Shown in pieces: positions 3,094 through 27,447 of a stretch of 32,000 bases of DNA. The notes below the pieces were generated by a model that was not told the origin of the DNA, did not search any database, and worked only from the letters and a program-made list of their open reading frames with translations. A program made the translations under genes and the position numbers. This stretch comes from Ignicoccus pacificus DSM 13166 (lineage in GTDB: Archaea > Thermoproteota > Thermoprotei_A > Sulfolobales > Ignicoccaceae), in NCBI GenBank assembly GCA_025340205.1, contig CP006868.1, positions 1,170,001 to 1,202,000 of the forward strand, written 5' to 3'. Each line of letters begins with the position of its first letter. The stretch's first letter is position 1.

Positions 3094-5580
3094 TTGAGCG
3101 GCTTGTGGTGTCCTGACGAGGTCTGGGTAGTAGGGGATGAGGAGATAGTGTGCACTTACACTTGCAACAAGACCTTCGGGAAGTGCGCCGAAGACTTCTG
3201 TGTGGAGGGAGCCGAGATAGTAGAGGCCTCTGGCAAGCTAAAGGTGGAGGGTAAGTGCGTCAAGGTCTTAGGAGGAAAGGGGAGGGGAGAGCTAAGGCTT
3301 AAGCCCGTCCTCGACGAGGTCAAGGTAAATGGATATGTAATAAAGGTAAAGAGGCTTAAGATAATTCCGATCGTTAGGAAGGCGTGGCTTAAGGCTCCGA
3401 CCGAGGTCACCTTGAGGTTCGAGGGATCTCCCGGAAAGGTGGGCTTCAGCGGGTTCATCTATGGCAATCCCGTGTCCGGGGAGGTCGAGGTTCCGGGGGA
3501 GGTGAGCTTCGAGGTAATCCCCGTCTCCCCCGGCGGCCACTTGGAGCTCTCCGTCTATCCTCACCCTCAAGTGATCTTGGACTTACCCCCTCCCCAGCCC
3601 CCCGTCGAGTCCTTGGAGCTCTTGGGGGACCCCCTCTTAGGCTTACCCTTGAAGGTAATGGTTAAAGGGAGGCCGAAGAGCGAGTTCAAGGTTAAGGTTT
3701 ACGGGACGGAGGCGAAGGGGAAGACGGACGAGGAAGGAAAGGGCATGGTTACCGTAATTCCAAAGGAGAAAGACAAGAAGGCTGTCGTGATCATCGGAGA
3801 GTATTCCAAGACCTTTGAGGTTCCCGAACCAAAGGAGCCGATAAGGCTCAAGAGCGCTTCCATAAGTGGAAGCGAGCTAGTGCTTGAGATAAGCTCAGTT
3901 AAGGACTTCTTTGCAAAGGTAATAGTTACCGGAATAGTGAAGCTTCAGAAAGATATTGCCCTGAAGAAAGGAGAGAACGAGGTTAGGATAAGGCTCGAGG
4001 AGCTCCCTCCCTTTACCAAGAGGGTCATCTTGGGAGTGAGGGTAAGGGTAGGAGAGTACGAGGAGAGCACGGAGGTAGAGGGAGAGCTGAGCGGGGTCGC
4101 AAAGGTCGTTCTCTTTGACGGTAAGAGGCTCTGGGTATACTCGACCGTCCCTAGCTCCTTGGGAATGTTTGAGCTGAGGGAAGGGGTAAACGTGATCGAG
4201 CCCCCTCTTAGGGCCCTGAGACCGTTGATCAAGGCCCCCTGCCCCGGTCCCGGTGCTATGGACTTGGTGCTGGCTATCGCTTGCGGTAAGTGCGTCAAGG
4301 TATTCTCAGATGGAAAGGACTTGGGAAGCGTCTGCTTGGACGAGGAGATAGTGGCGATAGATGTCGATGGAGAGAGGGTTCTCGCATCTGGAAAGACCTC
4401 CTCCCTCCTCCTAACAGATCCCAGGAAGCCGGCCAAGGTCCTTCCCGTAGGAGCGGTTCAGAACGCCTTGGGAGAGGATTGCATGATCCTCTGCTCCCCG
4501 GGCAAGTGTCATTGCTATTCCCTTACTGGGAAGAAGCTGTGGGATCTGCCAATAGGAGCGGACAAGCTCGAGGAGTTCTACATTCTGAAGGACGGAAAGC
4601 TGTACATGATCGAGGGGAAGTGGGTTAGGTTCATAGATGAGGTGGACGACTTCTCCAGCTACGGCGGAGAGCTTGCTATACTAAAGGGCAAGACCGTAAC
4701 CATAGGAAACAAGAGCTTTGAGGTGGACGGGAACAAAATAGAACTAGGTAAGGACTTCCTCGTGACCTATGGGGGTGAGTTCATATCCATATACTCAAAG
4801 GACGGCAAGCTGCTTTACAGGAAGAAGGAGAGGGCGAGGAGCGTTAAGGTAATCGATAGCAAGATACTCGTGAGCACGGACAAGGAAACCACGCTCTACG
4901 AACCGGTATACGAGACCTTTGAGGAGCCCCTCATCAAGCTGGAGGAGATACCCTCGGAGCTCAGGAACGAGAGGGCCTTCAGATTCATCACAATGCACTA
5001 CGAAAGCGTTATAGCCTACAAGGACTGCTTCTTGAGCTCCCACCTTCCGTTGGATCTCGTCGAAACCCTAGAGCTCTGCAAGCTCTCGGCCTCTCAGCCC
5101 GAGTACTCCGAGGTCTTCGAGAACCCGGACCTCATAGACGACCTTCCTTCCTTAAAGAAATATCTATCCGTTATGAGAATAGCTGAGAAGGGAGGAATGC
5201 TCGGAAGGCTCGCAAAGGACATATCTTCGAAGGCCCTCCCGTTAAAGGACTTGAAGCTTTACAAAGCCTTGAAGAAGGCTGAAGAGGTTCTGAATGACTC
5301 TCTTCCGACGTTAAAGGACCTCAACGAGAGCTTGTCCTCAATTAGGGAAGCCTTGGATGAGATAGGGGAGATAGAGGAGGGAGACCTCTGGAGGAGGGTA
5401 TCTGAAATAGAGAACGTCGGAGAACTCTCCGATCTTTTACTTAAAGAGAACATGGGACTGGACGAGCTGGCGATTAAGGTCTCAAGGGAAATAAGGAATC
5501 CTGAGCATTTGCTGAGAAAGGCTGAGGAGGCTATCCGCTTGTTAGAGCGCTCCAAGGAGTTGCTGGTGGAGGGCCGATGA
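3094..5580 (+). CDS. Large multidomain hypothetical protein: beta-sandwich/Ig-like N-terminal half, PQQ-like beta-propeller-type repeats, alpha-helical C-terminal quarter. No signal peptide.
   Basis: 828-aa ORF with a TTG start. 'KVKVYGTEAKGKTDEEGKGMVTV' looks like a CarboxypepD_reg-type beta-sandwich. 'YSLTGKKLWDLP' and 'YSKDGKLLY' look like PQQ-type blades. The C-terminal ~200 aa are rich in L/E/K (helical). Confidence 0.6.
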   Translation: MSGLWCPDEVWVVGDEEIVCTYTCNKTFGKCAEDFCVEGAEIVEASGKLKVEGKCVKVLGGKGRGELRLKPVLDEVKVNGYVIKVKRLKIIPIVRKAWLKAPTEVTLRFEGSPGKVGFSGFIYGNPVSGEVEVPGEVSFEVIPVSPGGHLELSVYPHPQVILDLPPPQPPVESLELLGDPLLGLPLKVMVKGRPKSEFKVKVYGTEAKGKTDEEGKGMVTVIPKEKDKKAVVIIGEYSKTFEVPEPKEPIRLKSASISGSELVLEISSVKDFFAKVIVTGIVKLQKDIALKKGENEVRIRLEELPPFTKRVILGVRVRVGEYEESTEVEGELSGVAKVVLFDGKRLWVYSTVPSSLGMFELREGVNVIEPPLRALRPLIKAPCPGPGAMDLVLAIACGKCVKVFSDGKDLGSVCLDEEIVAIDVDGERVLASGKTSSLLLTDPRKPAKVLPVGAVQNALGEDCMILCSPGKCHCYSLTGKKLWDLPIGADKLEEFYILKDGKLYMIEGKWVRFIDEVDDFSSYGGELAILKGKTVTIGNKSFEVDGNKIELGKDFLVTYGGEFISIYSKDGKLLYRKKERARSVKVIDSKILVSTDKETTLYEPVYETFEEPLIKLEEIPSELRNERAFRFITMHYESVIAYKDCFLSSHLPLDLVETLELCKLSASQPEYSEVFENPDLIDDLPSLKKYLSVMRIAEKGGMLGRLAKDISSKALPLKDLKLYKALKKAEEVLNDSLPTLKDLNESLSSIREALDEIGEIEEGDLWRRVSEIENVGELSDLLLKENMGLDELAIKVSREIRNPEHLLRKAEEAIRLLERSKELLVEGR

Positions 5581-10892: not shown

Positions 10893-11008
10893 GATCTCCC
10901 TTTCTCTAGTTTGAATGAATCATTAAAAATCTATATTAATAGAATTTTATGTTTACGATTCCACATTGATGGGATTTACTGCCGTTGTGACTGTGCTTTA
11001 TGTAGCCA

Positions 11009-11459
11009 TTTTCCATTCACTCTTGTAACTCTTCTGACCAAGGAAACGTACACCTCGTCTGCATACCGAACGTGCAGACTAACGACTTTCCATTCACTAT
11101 TGTGACTCTTCAACACGTTCTCAGCCGGTATCAAGGACGGCCTAATAGTAATCTTTCCATTCACTATTGTAACTCTTCATAGCATTGATAACCATCGAAG
11201 CCGAAGTGTGGACTGATCTTCCTTTCCATTCACTATTGTAACTCTTCAAATAAGGAGTGTATCGAGACGTACATACGCACAGGACAGTATACATGTGCCT
11301 TTCCATTCACTATTGTAACTCTTCACTGCAAAGCCATTGCCGGAGGTAGGATACTACTAAGGTACCACTTTCCATTCACTATTATAACTCTTCTGCTTTA
11401 CAAAGAAGTTGAGCCCTATTGCTTCTGAGACCTCTTTCCATTCACTATTGTAACTCTTC
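11009..11459 (-). CRISPR. CRISPR array: 7 repeats of about 26 nt and 6 spacers (51, 41, 43, 51, 43 and 40 nt)
   Basis: Repeats ctttccattcactattgtaactcttc lie at 11009, 11086, 11153, 11222, 11299, 11368 and 11434 (each +25). The copies at 11153, 11222, 11299 and 11434 are identical. The 11086 and 11368 copies each have 1 mismatch. The 11009 copy has 2 mismatches, making it the degenerate terminal repeat. The minus-strand reading GAAGAGTTACAATAGTGAATGGAAAG ends in GAAAG, like crenarchaeal type I-A/III repeats. This places the leader on the right and transcription on the minus strand. Confidence 0.95.
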
Positions 11460-11981
11460 CGTGACCCTCCTATTTAACTAGTTCTTCCTTTCACTAATAA
11501 GCCATTCCTTTCCCATTGCCTTGATTTGGTTACTTTATTAACTTTGAATACTTAAGCTTTCATGAGAACAGTTTTGCTCTACTTCCATCAATTAGAATTA
11601 CCTAATTGAAACTAATGGTCAAACAAAAGAGTTCATTATCATCGGCGTTTCCATGTATGTGATAATGGAAAGAATTGCTTGATCATAAAGCTAATTGAAC
11701 TTTGAAGTTGCTTAATCGAATAGAGCTCAAGGTGAAGGAAAGAAAGGAGACCATAAACGTTCTGATATGTTCCCATGGAAATCTTAGAATTATTAAATAC
11801 TAGAAAATAAACTGCAAGTCGCGGAGACCCCGAAACTCTGGGTTCCTATGAGATCATTATGTGTCTCCTGGCCCAAGGGTTCAGAGAAAGAGATCGCGAC
11901 ATTTTCGGTCACCTCTACACCTTAAGGTTTCTAATCGTACCTCATTACTAGGTTCGTAATACCTACTACACGGGTGGTAGG
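11460..11981. promoter_or_regulatory. AT-rich CRISPR leader plus divergent cas-operon promoter region
   Basis: About 520 nt with no ORF of 60 aa or more, lying between the intact leader-proximal repeat and csa1. It contains repeat-derived fragments and two hairpins/palindromes (11589-11608 and 11648-11671). Confidence 0.7.
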
Positions 11982-12695
11982 TTGCTCCCGCGGGCGGTCT
12001 GGGACGAGTTGAGGGCGACCGCGGGGGAGGTCATAGTGAACACCAGGGGCTGGGACTGGGCCTTACTTCAGTCCCGCTTCAGAGCTAGACCGAGCATAAG
12101 CGACGTCACCACCCCGTGTCCCACCAAGAGGGACGTCTACCTAAGGAGAATACTAGGCATGAGGATGGAGTCCCAAGCGTTGGAGACCGGAAGGAAGGTC
12201 CACGAGGCATTCATGGCGCCCTTCAAGGGCGAGGAGAAGGAGTACGAGGATCCCCTCCTCAAGAGGGTCTACGAGGAGGCCAAGCTGAGAAAGCTGGAGA
12301 GCGAGCAGGAGGGCATACCGGTAAGCGTGGAGCCTGAGATCCCGGGCTCCCCGATAGGCCTCTCCAGCACTATCAAGCCGGACTTCTTGGTCGGCTTCAT
12401 GCCCGTAGAGGTGGTCTACGGAGGAAACGGCTCACTAGAGAGGAAGAAGATAGCCGTAACCGGCTACGCCCTAGCGTTAGAGTCTTGGATTGGCCTTCCA
12501 GTCGACGCAGCCGTAATAATCAACGTTACAAACAAGAAGACTTACTGGAACGTTGTCAGGATACATGAAGGCTTGAGGAGGAAGTTCATAGAGCTTAGGG
12601 ACGAGGTCGCCAGGATCCTAGCGGAGAAGGAGGATCCCGGAACCTCAGAGGAGTGTCCGAGCTACTGTCCCTTCAAGGAGGTGTGCAAGGGATGA
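11982..12695 (+). CDS. csa1: Csa1-type Cas4-like protein (RecB-fold, type I-A adaptation module)
   Basis: 237 aa immediately upstream of cas1, with an ATGA overlap. It has an N-terminal Cys (TTPCPTKRD), 'RGWDW', 'IKPDFLV...VEVV' and a C-terminal Cys cluster 'ECPSYCPFKEVC'. The order csa1-cas1-cas2-cas4 matches Sulfolobales type I-A adaptation cassettes. Confidence 0.6.
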   Translation: MLPRAVWDELRATAGEVIVNTRGWDWALLQSRFRARPSISDVTTPCPTKRDVYLRRILGMRMESQALETGRKVHEAFMAPFKGEEKEYEDPLLKRVYEEAKLRKLESEQEGIPVSVEPEIPGSPIGLSSTIKPDFLVGFMPVEVVYGGNGSLERKKIAVTGYALALESWIGLPVDAAVIINVTNKKTYWNVVRIHEGLRRKFIELRDEVARILAEKEDPGTSEECPSYCPFKEVCKG

Positions 12696-13618
12696 GGACC
12701 TTCTTCGTGACTGATCCGGGAAGGATAGCTAGGAAGGACGGCGGGGTCGCTTACATCTCCAAGGACGGCGAGGTAAAGTACTTGACGAACGACTACGACG
12801 TAATAGTGGTTGCGAGCTCAAAGGTATCCATAACCAGCGCCGCGATGAGGCTCTTGGCTAGGTACGGAATAGATCTAGTAGTTCTCGAGTGGAACGGAGA
12901 GCCAGTGATAAGGGCCTCCTCCCCCATACCCAACAAGACCGCTATGACTAGGCTGAAGCAGTACGAGGTAATACTGAAGGGGAAGGCTCTCGACTACGCT
13001 AAGCCGATAATAATGAGGAAGATAATAGAGCAAGGGAGGACCCTTAGGTACATAGCTAAGAGCAAGAGGATCAATTGGTTGAGGGATCAGAGCTATCAGC
13101 TGGAGAAGCTCGCTCAAGACGCTTCTTCCGCTCAAGATCCGGACTCCTTGAGAAGCGTAGAAGCCTTAGCAGCTAAGCTCTACTGGGGCCTCCTGAGCGA
13201 GGTGTTCGAGGACTTCCCCGGAAGGATCCAAGAGTCGCAAGATCCCTACAACATGGCTATAAACTACGCTTATGGAATACTCTATTCCAACACGGCTAAG
13301 GCGTTGACCGTGGTGGGCTTGGACATCTACGCCGACTTCTTCCACACTCCGAAGAGCGGGAAGAGCTCCTTGGTTTACGACTTCAGCGAACAGTTCAAGC
13401 CGCTGGTAGATCAAGCCCTGTTCAGCAAGCTGAACTTCGAGAGGCTTCAAGCGGTGAACGGTGCCTTAACTTACGACTCCAGAAAGGAGGTCGCCAAGGT
13501 TGTTACTGAGGCCTTGGAGGAGTGTATAAGCAACTTGTTGCTTGTAGAGGCCTGGAACCTTACCTCCTACCTCAAGGAGGAGAGAGTTTACGTTCCGGGG
13601 TGGAAGAGGTGTATGTGA
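12692..13618 (+). CDS. cas1: CRISPR-associated endonuclease Cas1
   Basis: 'NMAINYAYGILYS...GLDIYADFFHTPKSGKSSLVYDFSEQFKPLVDQ' matches the Cas1 catalytic-region consensus. The start is taken at the ATG at 12692, which overlaps the csa1 stop. Confidence 0.92.
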   Translation: MRTFFVTDPGRIARKDGGVAYISKDGEVKYLTNDYDVIVVASSKVSITSAAMRLLARYGIDLVVLEWNGEPVIRASSPIPNKTAMTRLKQYEVILKGKALDYAKPIIMRKIIEQGRTLRYIAKSKRINWLRDQSYQLEKLAQDASSAQDPDSLRSVEALAAKLYWGLLSEVFEDFPGRIQESQDPYNMAINYAYGILYSNTAKALTVVGLDIYADFFHTPKSGKSSLVYDFSEQFKPLVDQALFSKLNFERLQAVNGALTYDSRKEVAKVVTEALEECISNLLLVEAWNLTSYLKEERVYVPGWKRCM

Positions 13619-21874: not shown

Positions 21875-21962
21875 GCCGGGGTGCCCGAGCGGCCCAAGGG
21901 GGTGGGCTTGAGACCCACTGGGGCTCTGCCCCGCGCGGGTTCGAATCCCGCCCCCGGCGCCA
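21875..21962 (+). tRNA. tRNA-Ser (anticodon UGA), class II with a long variable arm; CCA encoded
   Basis: Acceptor GCCGGGG/CCCCGGC. Anticodon stem GTGGG/CCCAC with loop CT-TGA-GA. Variable arm GGGGC-tct-GCCCC. T arm GCGGG-TTCGAAT-CCCGC. Discriminator G followed by CCA. Confidence 0.93.
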
Positions 21963-24605: not shown

Positions 24606-24764
24606 TTAGGTGGGTAAGGTTAGGCACTGTTCGGTGCACTTTTGCTCGCAGTAGCGGGTGTTCTTGAGGTCCTCCGGGCAGTTGTTCATGCACTCGCACC
24701 AGCACCTCTCCTTAGGATCCATAACCTCCCACTTAGAGGGGTCGCACTCTACCAAGGCTTTCAC
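24606..24764 (-). CDS. Candidate small cysteine-rich protein (52 aa from the GTG, 38 aa from the ATG at 24722); not in the ORF track
   Basis: Hand translation gives VKALVECDPSKWEVMDPKERCWCECMNNCPEDLKNTRYCEQKCTEQCLTLPT*, with 8 Cys. Codon usage looks like neighbouring genes. It competes with the listed 88-aa ORF in another frame, which is P/G/S/L-rich. Confidence 0.4.
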   Translation of the reverse strand: MKALVECDPSKWEVMDPKERCWCECMNNCPEDLKNTRYCEQKCTEQCLTLPT

Positions 24765-24858: not shown

Positions 24859-27447
24859 TTGCCAGAACAGAAGTTCTTCGTCACTGCGGCCTTCCCCTAT
24901 GCCTTGCCGTTCGACTTGGAAGACCTCTACACGAGGCTAAGGAGCTTCGTGATAGCTGACGCTTATGCCAAGTACAACCTAAGCCTAGGCAAGGAAGTCC
25001 TCTTCCCCATGGGCTTCCACTACTCGGGAACCCCCATAGTGTCCTTCTTCGAGGAGGTGAAGAAGGGTAATGAGGAAGCTGTAAAGAAGCTCAAGAGCTT
25101 GGGCGTAGACCCCACTCAAGTGGAATCCCCTAAGCACTTGGCAGACATAATGGCTGAGAAGATAAGGGAGCTCTTGGAAAAGCTTCAAGTTGAGCCCGAT
25201 TGGTCCCATTCGTTCAACACCGAGGATCCTGGATATAAATCCTTCGTAAGATGGATATTCTTGAAGCTTAAGGAAAAGGGCCTCGTGGAGAAGGGGATCT
25301 ACCCCGTCCCGTGGGATCCGGTAGAGGAGATGCCCATAAGTCATCACGACACCCAAGGCTTCAAGCTTCCCAAGATAGGACAGTTCTACCTCCTCCTCTT
25401 CGAGGTCTCTCCTAACACCTACTTGCCGGCCGCCCTTAGACCTGAGACGGCCTTCGCCGTTACCAACATATGGATAAACCCTAAGTCAAAATATGTGCTA
25501 ATAGATATGAATGGAAAGAGGATGATAGTGAGCGAGAAGGCGGCCTTCAAGCTCAGGCACCAAATAGAGGGAGTCGTTGAGCTGGGAGAGGTCTCCCCCA
25601 CCGAGCTGCTCGGCAAGAGGGCGCTCAACCCCATAACCCTAGAGAGGGTCCCCGTCCTCCCCTCCTCTCACGTGGATCCCAACAAGGGGAGCGGGCTGGT
25701 CGCCTCCACGCCGGCCCACAACGTTCAAGATTATCTAGCTCTCAAGGAGTTCCTCTCCAGTCCTACCTTACTCGAGAGCTTTGGCATCGAGGAGAAGGAG
25801 ATCAAGCCGAAGAAGGTGATAGAGGTCCCCGGGGAGGAGGACCTCTTGGAGAAGCTGCTGAAGGAAGATCCCAAGGAGGCGAACAGGAGGCTAACCCTAA
25901 TAGAGAGGAACAAGGGAAGAATGATTTGCGAGGAGATACTGAAGCTCGCTAAGGGCACCGAGAGGGAGGACTTCTTCAAGGGCCTGCTGAAGGTAGCCAT
26001 TTGTGACCACAAGCCTGGAGAAGTTGCGGAAATAGTGAAGAACGCCACGATATTCTCTGGAATAGCGTTCGTAATGTATGATATAATTAACGGACCCATT
26101 TACTCTAGGTTTGGAAACGAGGTAGTGGTCAAGATCCTCAAGGACCAGTGGTTCTTGAATTACGACAACGACAAGTGGAAGGAGGAAGCACTGGAGGCCT
26201 TGGGAATGACCGAGTTCTGGCCTAGAGACGCCAAGAAGGTCGTGGCGGAGAGCATCAGGACCGCAAGGAAGAGGGCCTTCACCGTGACTAGGGGAATGGG
26301 AACGGAGCTTCCTTGGGAGAGAGGTGCGATAATAGACAGCTTGAGCGATTCCACATTATACTACATGTATTACATCTTCGCTCCCAAGGTTAACGGGAAG
26401 GAGCTCAGCCCGGAGGAGTGGGATTATCTGATACTGGGTAAGGGAATGGGTGAGATTCCGGAGGAGCTGAAGGAGCTAAGGAGAGAGTTCATCAAGTGGA
26501 TGCCACTCGATATGAGGATAGTCCACGAGGGCCTGCTAAGGAGCCACGTGGCCTACATGTACTTCCATCAAGCGGCGCTCCTTCCCCCGACCCAGTCTCC
26601 CAAGAGGCTCATCTCAACCGGACCGGTCGAGGGAGACCTCAGGGATCCGTGGAAGGTGAACGGAGAAGCGCTGAGGTTGTTACTATTAACCAAGGCCAAG
26701 CCATCATCTAAGCTAACGATTGAGAAGTTGGAGGATGAATTGAATTCAATGAATAGGATGATAAACCAGATCAAGAATCTGAAAGGCATTGAAACCGAAG
26801 AAAGGGAGATGACCTTGGTAGATCAGTGGCTCTTGAGCGAGCTCGCCAAGCAAGGGGAGAGGTTCAGGTTCCACATGGAGCAGAATCAAGTAAGGGAGGC
26901 AGCTCTTATAGCGGTTAACAAGATGCTGGACATAGCCTTTAGATACTTGAGCAGGGTTGCAGACGAAGGATTGAAACCCTCCAACGTCTTCAAGGACTTC
27001 TTGGAAGGCTGGAGCGCTATGTTGTATCCGATAATGCCTAAGCTGGCCAAGGAGATAGGGACCGGCAAGTGGGTTGAAGCCGAGAGGAACCTAGAGGCGG
27101 AGGCGGCGGAGGCCTACTTTGACATCCTCTACCAGACCCTCAAGCCGTACAGAGGTAAGAGGGTAACTTTGGTCGTGGCACCTTATGAGAAGATGAAGGC
27201 GCTTAGAGACGCGCTCGAAGCCATAGATGAAGGAGTGTGGGAGGACTTGGAGGACATGCCGAAGGAGATAGTGGATGAGGCCTTCAAGCTAGGGAGCGAC
27301 TTGAGGGAGCTGGTGAACTACATCAACGAAGAGGAGCTAGCGAGGAGGTTCGCCGAGGTGCTCAAGAACAAGCTCGGCTTAGAGGAACTCAAGGTTGAGG
27401 TCGGAGACACCCTTCCGCTAAAACCTCTTGTGAAAGAAAATCAGTGA
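24859..27447 (+). CDS. Leucyl-tRNA synthetase paralog lacking the HIGH and KMSKS catalytic motifs
   Basis: Clearly collinear with archaeal LeuRS: 'KFFVTAAFPY', 'LFPMGFHYSGTPIV', 'LPAALRPETAFAVTNIWINP', 'ESLSDSTLYYMYY'. Where HxGH is expected it reads 'FDLEDLYTR'. The KMSKS loop region reads 'STGPVEGDLRDPWKVNG'. It is also about 35 aa shorter at the N-terminus and shorter at the C-terminus than typical archaeal LeuRS of about 950 aa. Confidence 0.8.
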   Translation: MPEQKFFVTAAFPYALPFDLEDLYTRLRSFVIADAYAKYNLSLGKEVLFPMGFHYSGTPIVSFFEEVKKGNEEAVKKLKSLGVDPTQVESPKHLADIMAEKIRELLEKLQVEPDWSHSFNTEDPGYKSFVRWIFLKLKEKGLVEKGIYPVPWDPVEEMPISHHDTQGFKLPKIGQFYLLLFEVSPNTYLPAALRPETAFAVTNIWINPKSKYVLIDMNGKRMIVSEKAAFKLRHQIEGVVELGEVSPTELLGKRALNPITLERVPVLPSSHVDPNKGSGLVASTPAHNVQDYLALKEFLSSPTLLESFGIEEKEIKPKKVIEVPGEEDLLEKLLKEDPKEANRRLTLIERNKGRMICEEILKLAKGTEREDFFKGLLKVAICDHKPGEVAEIVKNATIFSGIAFVMYDIINGPIYSRFGNEVVVKILKDQWFLNYDNDKWKEEALEALGMTEFWPRDAKKVVAESIRTARKRAFTVTRGMGTELPWERGAIIDSLSDSTLYYMYYIFAPKVNGKELSPEEWDYLILGKGMGEIPEELKELRREFIKWMPLDMRIVHEGLLRSHVAYMYFHQAALLPPTQSPKRLISTGPVEGDLRDPWKVNGEALRLLLLTKAKPSSKLTIEKLEDELNSMNRMINQIKNLKGIETEEREMTLVDQWLLSELAKQGERFRFHMEQNQVREAALIAVNKMLDIAFRYLSRVADEGLKPSNVFKDFLEGWSAMLYPIMPKLAKEIGTGKWVEAERNLEAEAAEAYFDILYQTLKPYRGKRVTLVVAPYEKMKALRDALEAIDEGVWEDLEDMPKEIVDEAFKLGSDLRELVNYINEEELARRFAEVLKNKLGLEELKVEVGDTLPLKPLVKENQ

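Follow-up and report, generated by a model that had tools for sequence, protein, structure and literature searches.

Introduction

Extra copies of aminoacyl-tRNA synthetases that do not charge tRNA are known, and their roles are mostly unexplained. Among the leucyl-tRNA synthetases (LeuRSs), one such copy is LeuRS-I of the Sulfolobaceae, a full-length archaeal-type enzyme found beside the canonical LeuRS. According to a review (PMC9437257) that summarises Weitzel et al. 2020, LeuRS-I binds tRNA-Leu and makes leucyl-AMP (Leu-AMP) without charging the tRNA, and it has a disrupted CP1 (editing) domain and a divergent acidic C-terminal domain. Natrialba magadii LeuRS2 is likewise the second LeuRS of an archaeon, with strongly reduced aminoacylation and no detectable editing (PMC4005665). 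Here we describe a further extra copy, encoded in a 32,000-nucleotide stretch of Ignicoccus pacificus DSM 13166 (contig CP006868.1, positions 1,170,001 to 1,202,000 of the forward strand; hereafter the window). The gene lies at positions 24859..27447 of the window, and we call its product the pseudo-synthetase. Taken as a whole, the data are best explained by a lineage-specific, expressed, LeuRS-derived protein that has become a non-aminoacylating binding protein. We regard this as probable rather than secure.

Synthetase folds have also been put to other uses. The crenarchaeal ThrRS-ed (Korencic et al. 2004) is reportedly a paralogue of ThrRS that exists as a separate editing protein and whose catalytic domain is defective. 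Its partner ThrRS-cat reportedly lacks the editing domain, and the labour is divided between the two. Cyclodipeptide synthases, which have a class Ic fold and use aminoacyl-tRNA, and HisZ, a HisRS-like regulatory subunit, are synthetase folds without the ATP signatures. Such folds have been turned to the binding of aminoacyl-tRNA or of an amino acid. They belong to other synthetase families and are much smaller than the Ignicoccus paralogue, and unlike in those systems we see no sign here of a transferase nucleophile or of a partner enzyme. We use them as analogies only. HisZ also appears in a table of PMC9437257.

Identity, fold and family of the protein

24859..27447, forward strand: complete pseudo-synthetase gene from the list of open reading frames (ORFs), with a TTG start, a TGA stop and a product of 862 amino acids

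The product is 100% identical to IPA_06975 (P0001) of I. pacificus DSM 13166, which is publicly annotated as a 'hypothetical protein'. In UniRef it is named 'leucine--tRNA ligase', and the I. hospitalis proteomics table likewise uses leucyl-tRNA synthetase. A Pfam search of the protein finds class I synthetase domains. The best NCBIfam matches are the archaeal leuS models PRK12300 (550.3 bits, cut-off 677) and TIGR00395 (411.1 bits, cut-off 648.5), and both scores fall below the curated cut-offs for membership of the LeuRS family. With phmmer, the best match of solved structure is the Pyrococcus horikoshii LeuRS (PhLeuRS; PDB 1wkb/1wz2; E 1e-84 to 1e-86). The AF2 model is a confident LeuRS fold (pLDDT 93.5, pTM 0.86). 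The top Foldseek matches of the protein are LeuRS structures, with full-length superposition and TMq values of 0.82-0.84 to human LeuRS and 0.77 to 1wz2. The Rossmann fold, CP1, SC fold, helix bundle and C-terminal domain are all present in this model. This is the domain order and fold of canonical archaeal LeuRS, as in PhLeuRS and in the canonical I. pacificus enzyme (P0055), from which the paralogue differs in lacking the N-terminal extension of ~30 residues.

The four peptides quoted in the first-pass annotation of this DNA are all found, with FPYALPFDLEDLYTRLRSF at residues 12-30, STGPVEGDLRDPWKVNGEALRLL at 586-608, LRPETAFAVTNIWINP at 193-208 and STPAHNVQD at 283-291. The collinearity with archaeal LeuRS that it described also holds. 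It extends further than was proposed, into a divergent C-terminal domain whose homology to its canonical counterpart is shown by hhalign (98.7%, E 4e-16).

Close relatives of the pseudo-synthetase form 12 clusters at 50-71% identity among 5.8 billion proteins, after which there is an abrupt drop to canonical LeuRSs at <=37%. Members of the 12 clusters include I. islandicus EYM_02315, I. hospitalis ABU82118 and proteins from marine-vent-type metagenome-assembled genomes (MAGs). We also ran a profile of the 12 against 1.84 billion proteins, a set of 50%-identity representatives. It recovered one family member (1421 bits), followed by the canonical LeuRS of I. islandicus at 564 bits. Thus, this is a narrow family, and no distant members of it are found in public data. 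A scan of the genome collection with the single protein gave no match. The alignment-based scan returned, among the matches listed, only canonical LeuRS loci at 28-36% identity, and it is uninformative on distribution.

The start codon is not ATG in five of the six orthologous genes compared (the window gene at 24859, L001, L084, L085, L086 and I. islandicus). It is TTG in the window and a Leu-coded first codon in the called genes, and only I. islandicus has ATG. The called start of P0002 lies ~11 codons further upstream than those of the other orthologues and may be mis-called.

Loss of the ATP-binding elements

24892..24948, forward strand: remodelled HIGH segment FPYALPFDLEDLYTRLRSF, residues 12-30, with a 3-residue insertion and the changes H to L, G to T25 and H to R26
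25003..25038, forward strand: segment FPMGFHYSGTPI, residues 49-60, common with canonical LeuRS, with F53, H54, Y55, G57 and P59 conserved in both
26497..26571, forward strand: relic of the WYPLDSRHSGKDLI.NH segment, here WMPLDMRIVHEGLLRSHVAYMYFHQ, residues 547-571, in which GKD reads HEG and His563 is kept
26614..26682, forward strand: site of the KMSKS-loop deletion, STGPVEGDLRDPWKVNGEALRLL, residues 586-608, found in 12/12 orthologues

Motif states were scored in a MAFFT alignment of the 12 orthologues with canonical LeuRSs. Counts for HIGH refer to 11 orthologues, the twelfth being N-terminally truncated. In all 11, the first His of HIGH is replaced by Leu or Met, the Gly by Thr and the last His by Arg, and T25, R26 and R28 of the new segment are kept throughout. 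The phmmer alignment to PhLeuRS sets FPYALPFDLEDLYT against FPYLSGHLHVGH. The lysine of the GKD motif is Glu in 12/12 orthologues (E557, invariant), with the Gly changed to His or Tyr and the Asp variable. The KMSKS loop is physically absent from every orthologue, as a deletion of 14-15 residues in the MAFFT alignment and as an 11-residue gap against QKMSKSKGNVLNF in the phmmer alignment to PhLeuRS. The missing HIGH motif and deleted KMSKS loop noticed in the first reading of the DNA are therefore borne out by both alignments, and the orthologues show that these losses are not intact motifs misplaced by an alignment slip.

Judged from these alignments, the three elements that hold ATP in a class I site (HIGH, the GKD lysine and the KMSKS loop) are gone in the orthologues. 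In the class I mechanism, HIGH and KMSKS both stabilise the adenylation transition state. Because all three elements are gone, leucine activation is not to be expected, in agreement with the first-pass annotation, and we infer that the pseudo-synthetase neither forms Leu-AMP nor charges tRNA. The label 'leucine--tRNA ligase' therefore probably misstates the function of the protein.

The amino-acid side of the pocket has fared differently, since FPY, FHYxGxP and His563 are kept in the paralogues. The FPMGFHYSGTPI segment presumably formed part of this side of the old active site. LeuRS-I carries Q where this segment has H. Across the whole alignment, 100 positions are conserved in common between paralogues and canonical enzymes, including FPY, FHYxGxP, much of CP1 and DQWF. 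At a further 32 positions the paralogues have acquired a conserved residue of their own that differs from the canonical one, and 48 conserved canonical positions are relaxed.

LeuRS-I shows the reverse pattern. It keeps HIGH and KMSKS and makes Leu-AMP, with the editing Asp changed to His and the T-rich peptide altered, whereas the Ignicoccus paralogue has a destroyed ATP site and mostly keeps the editing Asp. LeuRS2 of Natrialba magadii differs from the Ignicoccus paralogue in another way. Its body is of the bacterial type and its C-terminal domain archaeal. HIGH is intact and KMSKS mostly so (one Lys changed to Ser), and the enzyme still charges tRNA weakly (PMC4005665).

The canonical copy, selection and expression

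A canonical LeuRS with HLGH, KMSKS, AATLRAET and PAHAPFD was found in each Ignicoccus species examined. In I. pacificus it is annotated (P0055). In I. islandicus it lies on the same chromosome (CP006867.1), ~340 kb from the paralogue, and in the I. hospitalis proteome it is Iho_0150, the paralogue being Iho_0938 (845 aa). The coexistence of the two copies rests on protein source names in I. pacificus and on coordinates in I. islandicus. The suggestion that the pseudo-synthetase could be the only functional LeuRS of its genome therefore falls away.

The paralogue is under purifying selection. All 11 full-length orthologues have 840-873 residues, and no internal stop was found in the six orthologous genes (6/6) whose DNA was read. 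In those six genes the proportion of nonsynonymous differences (pN) is 0.19-0.35 and that of synonymous differences (pS) is 0.63-0.83. Since the synonymous sites are saturated, only an upper bound on dN/dS of <=0.25 is meaningful. Between I. pacificus and I. islandicus the paralogue is 57% identical and the canonical LeuRS 70%, so the paralogue has evolved faster. Its N-terminal Rossmann half is nearly as conserved as that of the canonical enzyme (68% versus 73%). Among the paralogues, identity is 62-68% in this half and 62-64% in CP1, and it falls to 38-39% in the helix bundle.

The protein is also made. In the whole-cell proteomics data for I. hospitalis (PMC3149612, Table S1), Iho_0938 has 294/321 adjusted spectra (nSpC 102/110) and the canonical Iho_0150 has 637/556 (nSpC 182/158). 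The abundance of the paralogue is thus ~55-70% of that of the canonical LeuRS. Literature searches on LeuRS in Ignicoccus and on the I. hospitalis gene, by accession and by locus tag, brought up no relevant paper, and in the part of the I. hospitalis genome paper that discusses other synthetases the paralogue gene is unmentioned.

The C-terminal domain and tRNA recognition

27064..27447, forward strand: C-terminal domain, residues 736-862, short and acidic, with an isoelectric point (pI) of 4.6 and a net charge of -10
27220-27255, forward strand: conserved motif AIDEGVWEDLED within the C-terminal domain
27415-27444, forward strand: degenerate tail PLKPLVKENQ

Homology of this domain to the canonical one needed profile-profile comparison, because a phmmer search of the domain against the PDB gave no LeuRS match even at E <= 10. 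The C-terminal domains of the paralogues are ~30-50 residues shorter than the canonical one and have tails of variable length. They are uniformly acidic (pI 4.6-4.9, net charge -8 to -13). The pI of this domain is 4.5-5.7 in LeuRS-I and 5.8-8.7 in LeuRS-F.

In PhLeuRS, residues D845, I849, P962, I964, I966 and E967 read A47c and G47d of the variable arm of tRNA-Leu, and charging is abolished once more than one residue is taken from the C-terminus. The C-terminal domain of the canonical I. pacificus enzyme can be aligned with PhLeuRS through the last residue. In the paralogues, the equivalents of D845, I966 and E967 are lost and that of I849 is deleted in 12/12. The equivalent of P962 is kept in nine of the 12, and that of I964 is conservative. 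By alignment, then, the residues of the C-terminal domain that read the variable arm are gone in the paralogues. Counts of the conserved canonical Lys and Arg residues (23 kept, 19 lost, 16 gained) are not decisive as a proxy for tRNA binding. The idea in the first-pass annotation that the protein might still bind tRNA-Leu appears doubtful for the canonical mode of binding, given these losses in all orthologues and the acidic domain.

The editing domain

25339..25833, forward strand: CP1 (editing) domain, residues ~161-325, with a weak match to Pfam PF13603
25423..25482, forward strand: T-rich peptide LPAA-LRPETAFAVTNIWINP, residues 189-208, shorter by one residue than AATLRPET, with the second Thr kept as T197
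25687..25734, forward strand: editing-Asp segment GSGLVASTPAHNVQDY, residues 277-292, in which Asp291 corresponds to PhLeuRS Asp332 (phmmer) and a pocket Met has become Ala282

Of all regions, CP1 comes closest to canonical LeuRS (45-46% identity). By our counts it keeps 25 of 36 canonical-invariant positions (~69%), compared with ~54% in the Rossmann parts. The editing Asp is present in 10 of the 12 orthologues, and so is the second Thr of the T-rich peptide. The two exceptions, I. islandicus and P0004, have lost both, with Asp changed to Ser and Thr to Leu, yet their proteins are still full-length and 57-58% identical to the I. pacificus pseudo-synthetase. The 1-residue deletion that shortens the T-rich peptide and the change of the pocket Met to Ala are found in 12/12. 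The CP1 landmarks, which the first-pass annotation described as kept, thus survive only in part.

One alternative to the binding-protein reading is that the pseudo-synthetase is a trans-editing factor, in which CP1 hydrolyses Ile-, Met- or norvaline-tRNA-Leu in trans and the dead body serves as a tRNA-binding scaffold. The similarity of CP1 to the canonical domain, its share of invariant positions and the retention of Asp and Thr in 10/12 all speak for it. The D332A mutant of PhLeuRS is editing-deficient, which marks the importance of the retained Asp, and PhLeuRS editing survives removal of the whole C-terminal domain. ThrRS-ed is the closest precedent, being a synthetase paralogue retained for its editing domain. 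Unlike in the ThrRS-ed system, the canonical Ignicoccus LeuRS partner keeps its own intact CP1 (AATLRAET, SVPAHAPFDY), which would make a separate editor superfluous. Nor are the editing residues universal in the Ignicoccus paralogues, and the pocket is altered in all of them. The loss of the variable-arm recognition residues is a further difficulty. Hydrolysis of mischarged tRNA, as suggested in the first reading, may occur, but the altered T-rich peptide and the loss of Asp and Thr in two otherwise well-conserved orthologues weaken the case. We consider trans-editing unlikely as the role of the protein, though it is the strongest of the alternatives. In most members CP1 could plausibly act as a deacylase. 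This activity probably does not unify the family, because the two orthologues lost both residues without other decay.

Origin of the paralogue

25300..25329, forward strand: first former zinc-cysteine site YPVPWDPVEE, residues 148-157, with Cys changed to Asp as in the Ignicoccus canonical LeuRS
26092..26127, forward strand: second former zinc-cysteine site GPIYSRFGNEVV, residues 412-423, which reads YCRCG.E in other lineages

Three rare sequence states are found only in the paralogues and in Ignicoccus-type canonical LeuRS. These are WDPV for WCP, YSRFGNEVV for YCRCG.E, and PVS.HDT for PVGMHDT, a Gly-to-Ser change. At the first site, LeuRS-I, LeuRS-F and nearly all other Thermoproteota have W/Y-C-P where the paralogues and Ignicoccus-type canonical enzymes have WDP. 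The SRFGNEVV state at the second site is common only to these same two groups, with P0031 similar and P0112 partly similar. LeuRS-I and its relatives (including P0129) keep both cysteine pairs and PVGMHDT, as LeuRS-F does, whereas the paralogue has lost the zinc cysteines like the Ignicoccus LeuRS. Because this loss is common to the paralogue and to Ignicoccus' own LeuRS, we infer that leuS was probably duplicated within the Ignicoccus lineage, independently of Sulfolobaceae LeuRS-I.

The canonical Ignicoccus LeuRS (P0055, P0061 and relatives) is itself unusual. It has lost both zinc-cysteine pairs kept by most other aligned Thermoproteota LeuRSs, and it has an insertion of ~60 residues in the N-terminal Rossmann half.

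We also built neighbour-joining trees with simple distance corrections and bootstraps. With a gamma correction (alpha 1.0) the paralogues group with the Ignicoccus canonical LeuRS in 61% of replicates and with the LeuRS-I clade in 34%. With alpha 0.6 the values are 92% and 1%. With the Kimura correction they are 27% and 67%. Since support for the LeuRS-I grouping falls as the rate correction rises, this grouping behaves as long-branch attraction. A first tree, in which the paralogues joined P0127 and P0129 at 100%, was rejected as long-branch attraction once slow-evolving LeuRS-I members and the gamma correction had been added and the rare characters inspected.

The LeuRS-I clade ('Leucine--tRNA ligase 1' of S. 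acidocaldarius, M. sedula and others) was recovered through a representative found in the profile search. The properties given here for LeuRS-I are those stated in PMC9437257, together with our reading of the 'ligase 1' sequences. These sequences keep HIGH and KMSKS, and have FQ(F/Y)TG, AT(P/S)RPET, GAVAIL and the change of the editing Asp to His. None of the last four signatures occurs in the Ignicoccus family.

These observations bear on a second alternative, that the pseudo-synthetase is a degenerate orthologue of LeuRS-I, and that a single ancient duplication took place in the common ancestor of Sulfolobaceae and Ignicoccaceae. In its favour are the Kimura tree, which groups the paralogues with LeuRS-I plus P0129, the first tree, and the acidic C-terminal domains of both groups. 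In both, moreover, the LWPR segment has been stripped of its Trp and Tyr is found in the ..Y..(F/Y)HH segment, and some members of the LeuRS-I clade (P0127/P0283 and P0129/P0386) have lost HIGH and KMSKS as well. Against it, the tree support collapses under gamma correction, LeuRS-I keeps the cysteine pairs and PVGMHDT where the paralogues have the derived states of the Ignicoccus canonical enzyme, and the signature changes of LeuRS-I are absent. Searches started from the clade members P0127 and P0129 rank the Ignicoccus paralogues below many canonical enzymes. We find common descent from one duplication quite improbable. The first-pass annotation had placed the protein in the same class as the duplicates reported in Sulfolobales. 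The opposite pattern of loss, the rare characters and the gamma-corrected trees place it elsewhere. We conclude that the Ignicoccus paralogues and LeuRS-I most likely converged on an acidic C-terminal domain, as their sequences suggest. In this feature, and in the absence of charging reported for LeuRS-I (PMC9437257), the two resemble each other.

The two further lineages just mentioned, P0127/P0283 from Thermoprotei MAGs and P0129/P0386 from uncultured organisms, lie in or beside the LeuRS-I clade, whose other members keep HIGH and KMSKS. P0284, which is 70% identical to P0127, has HVGH and KMSKA. Like the Ignicoccus paralogue, the two lineages are Thermoprotei LeuRS homologues without HIGH and KMSKS. 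They differ from it in branching with LeuRS-I, in having FQYTG, in retaining the cysteines and in carrying HEP.. in the editing segment. P0127 and P0283 are also without the editing Asp, unlike most Ignicoccus paralogues. Since both lineages lost both motifs, loss of the catalytic motifs in LeuRS paralogues looks recurrent.

Proposed function

We suggest that the pseudo-synthetase is a non-aminoacylating binding protein, either for the acceptor end of tRNA or its aminoacyl-adenosine, or for an amino-acid ligand. This is proposed because the N-terminal Rossmann half and CP1 are the best conserved parts, and because both normally accommodate the aminoacyl-adenosine end of tRNA. The acceptor end would be engaged rather than the variable arm of tRNA-Leu, whose readout residues are lost. 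The acidic C-terminal domain may contact a (basic) protein partner, or it may keep the pseudo-synthetase from competing with LeuRS for tRNA-Leu.

Several observations weigh against this proposal. Half of the conserved canonical Lys and Arg residues are lost, and several are charge-reversed. The gene neighbourhood differs among I. pacificus, I. hospitalis and I. islandicus and, not being conserved across the three species, gives no clue to function. As to a lineage-specific origin, the phylogeny is based on neighbour-joining with simple corrections, and the Kimura tree prefers the LeuRS-I clade.

A more specific version of the proposal is that the pocket has been rebuilt, with the leucine side kept and the ATP side replaced by T25-R26 and E557, and that it holds the leucyl-adenosine end of Leu-tRNA-Leu or free leucine. 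We put this forward as speculation with a small chance of being right. By analogy with the reuse of the class I fold in cyclodipeptide synthases, such a protein would be an aminoacyl-tRNA-dependent enzyme. Alternatively, by analogy with HisZ, it would be a sensor of leucine or Leu-tRNA that regulates a partner through its acidic C-terminal domain.

Returning to the non-aminoacylating binding protein, we can compare it with the possibility that the protein is still an active LeuRS, or a synthetase for another substrate, in which non-canonical motifs replace HIGH and KMSKS. The fold is intact, the protein is abundant, and the new segments are themselves conserved and not random, with T25, R26 and E557 invariant. 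This must be set against the loss of three separate ATP-binding elements, with the mobile KMSKS loop physically deleted, when HIGH and KMSKS stabilise the adenylation transition state of class I enzymes. The NCBIfam scores are under the LeuRS cut-offs, and a canonical enzyme is present and abundant. We think an active synthetase very improbable. Finally, a decaying gene copy without a function of its own, for which the faster evolution (57% versus 70% identity) and the 48 relaxed positions could be cited, is already contradicted by the uniform length of the 11 full-length orthologues, the six genes without internal stops, a pN well under the saturated pS, the 32 positions switched to newly conserved residues and the ~300 spectra in I. 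hospitalis, and it merits hardly any credence.

Neighbourhood of the gene and other features of the window

In the I. hospitalis clade (regions L001 8535-10707 of I. hospitalis and L084 7532-10406 of MAG GCA_013154085), the stop of the paralogue overlaps the start of a gene of 120-124 aa. This is followed by a 297-aa gene (Iho_0940, abundant in the proteomics) and then by a Trm5/Taw2 tRNA methyltransferase. In GCA_013154085 an AlaX-like gene is adjacent as well. The 124-aa gene, the 297-aa gene, Trm5/Taw2 and the AlaX-like gene were all absent from the I. pacificus window, in which the following features were seen.

24609-24722, reverse strand: Cys-rich ORF of 38 aa with 7 Cys, MDPKERCWCECMNNCPEDLKNTRYCEQKCTEQCLTLPT, in an apparently intergenic gap just upstream of the paralogue and on the opposite strand to it
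21875-21962, forward strand: tRNA-Ser(TGA), the only RNA gene detected in the window
11003-11460, 11982-12695 and 12653-13618: short CRISPR array with 7 repeats of core CTTTCCATTCACTATTGTAACTCTTC at a spacing of 66-77 nt, beside csa1 and cas1
3094-5580, forward strand: ORF of 828 aa
19366-21327, reverse strand: ORF of 653 aa
657-2003, reverse strand: ORF of 448 aa
22044-23063, forward strand: ORF of 339 aa

The CRISPR array sits in a low-GC stretch (0.40 versus ~0.52). The last four entries are large ORFs without a Pfam match at the thresholds used.

Significance

Non-charging LeuRS copies are known as a class. We conclude that the Ignicoccus protein is an independently evolved case, with a pattern of loss opposite to that of LeuRS-I. 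It represents a natural experiment, in which a full-length class I synthetase without its ATP-binding elements has been selected across a genus and is produced near the level of the canonical enzyme. The two proteins offer complementary handles on the use of the LeuRS scaffold, since the ATP site is lost and CP1 kept in Ignicoccus, while CP1 is lost and the ATP site kept in LeuRS-I. If the rebuilt pocket described above is real, a non-charging LeuRS with an acidic tail would have evolved at least two times in Thermoprotei. Together, the Ignicoccus paralogue, LeuRS-I and the two further lineages of the LeuRS-I clade point to a recurrent and selectable use of the LeuRS scaffold outside translation among hyperthermophilic Thermoprotei.

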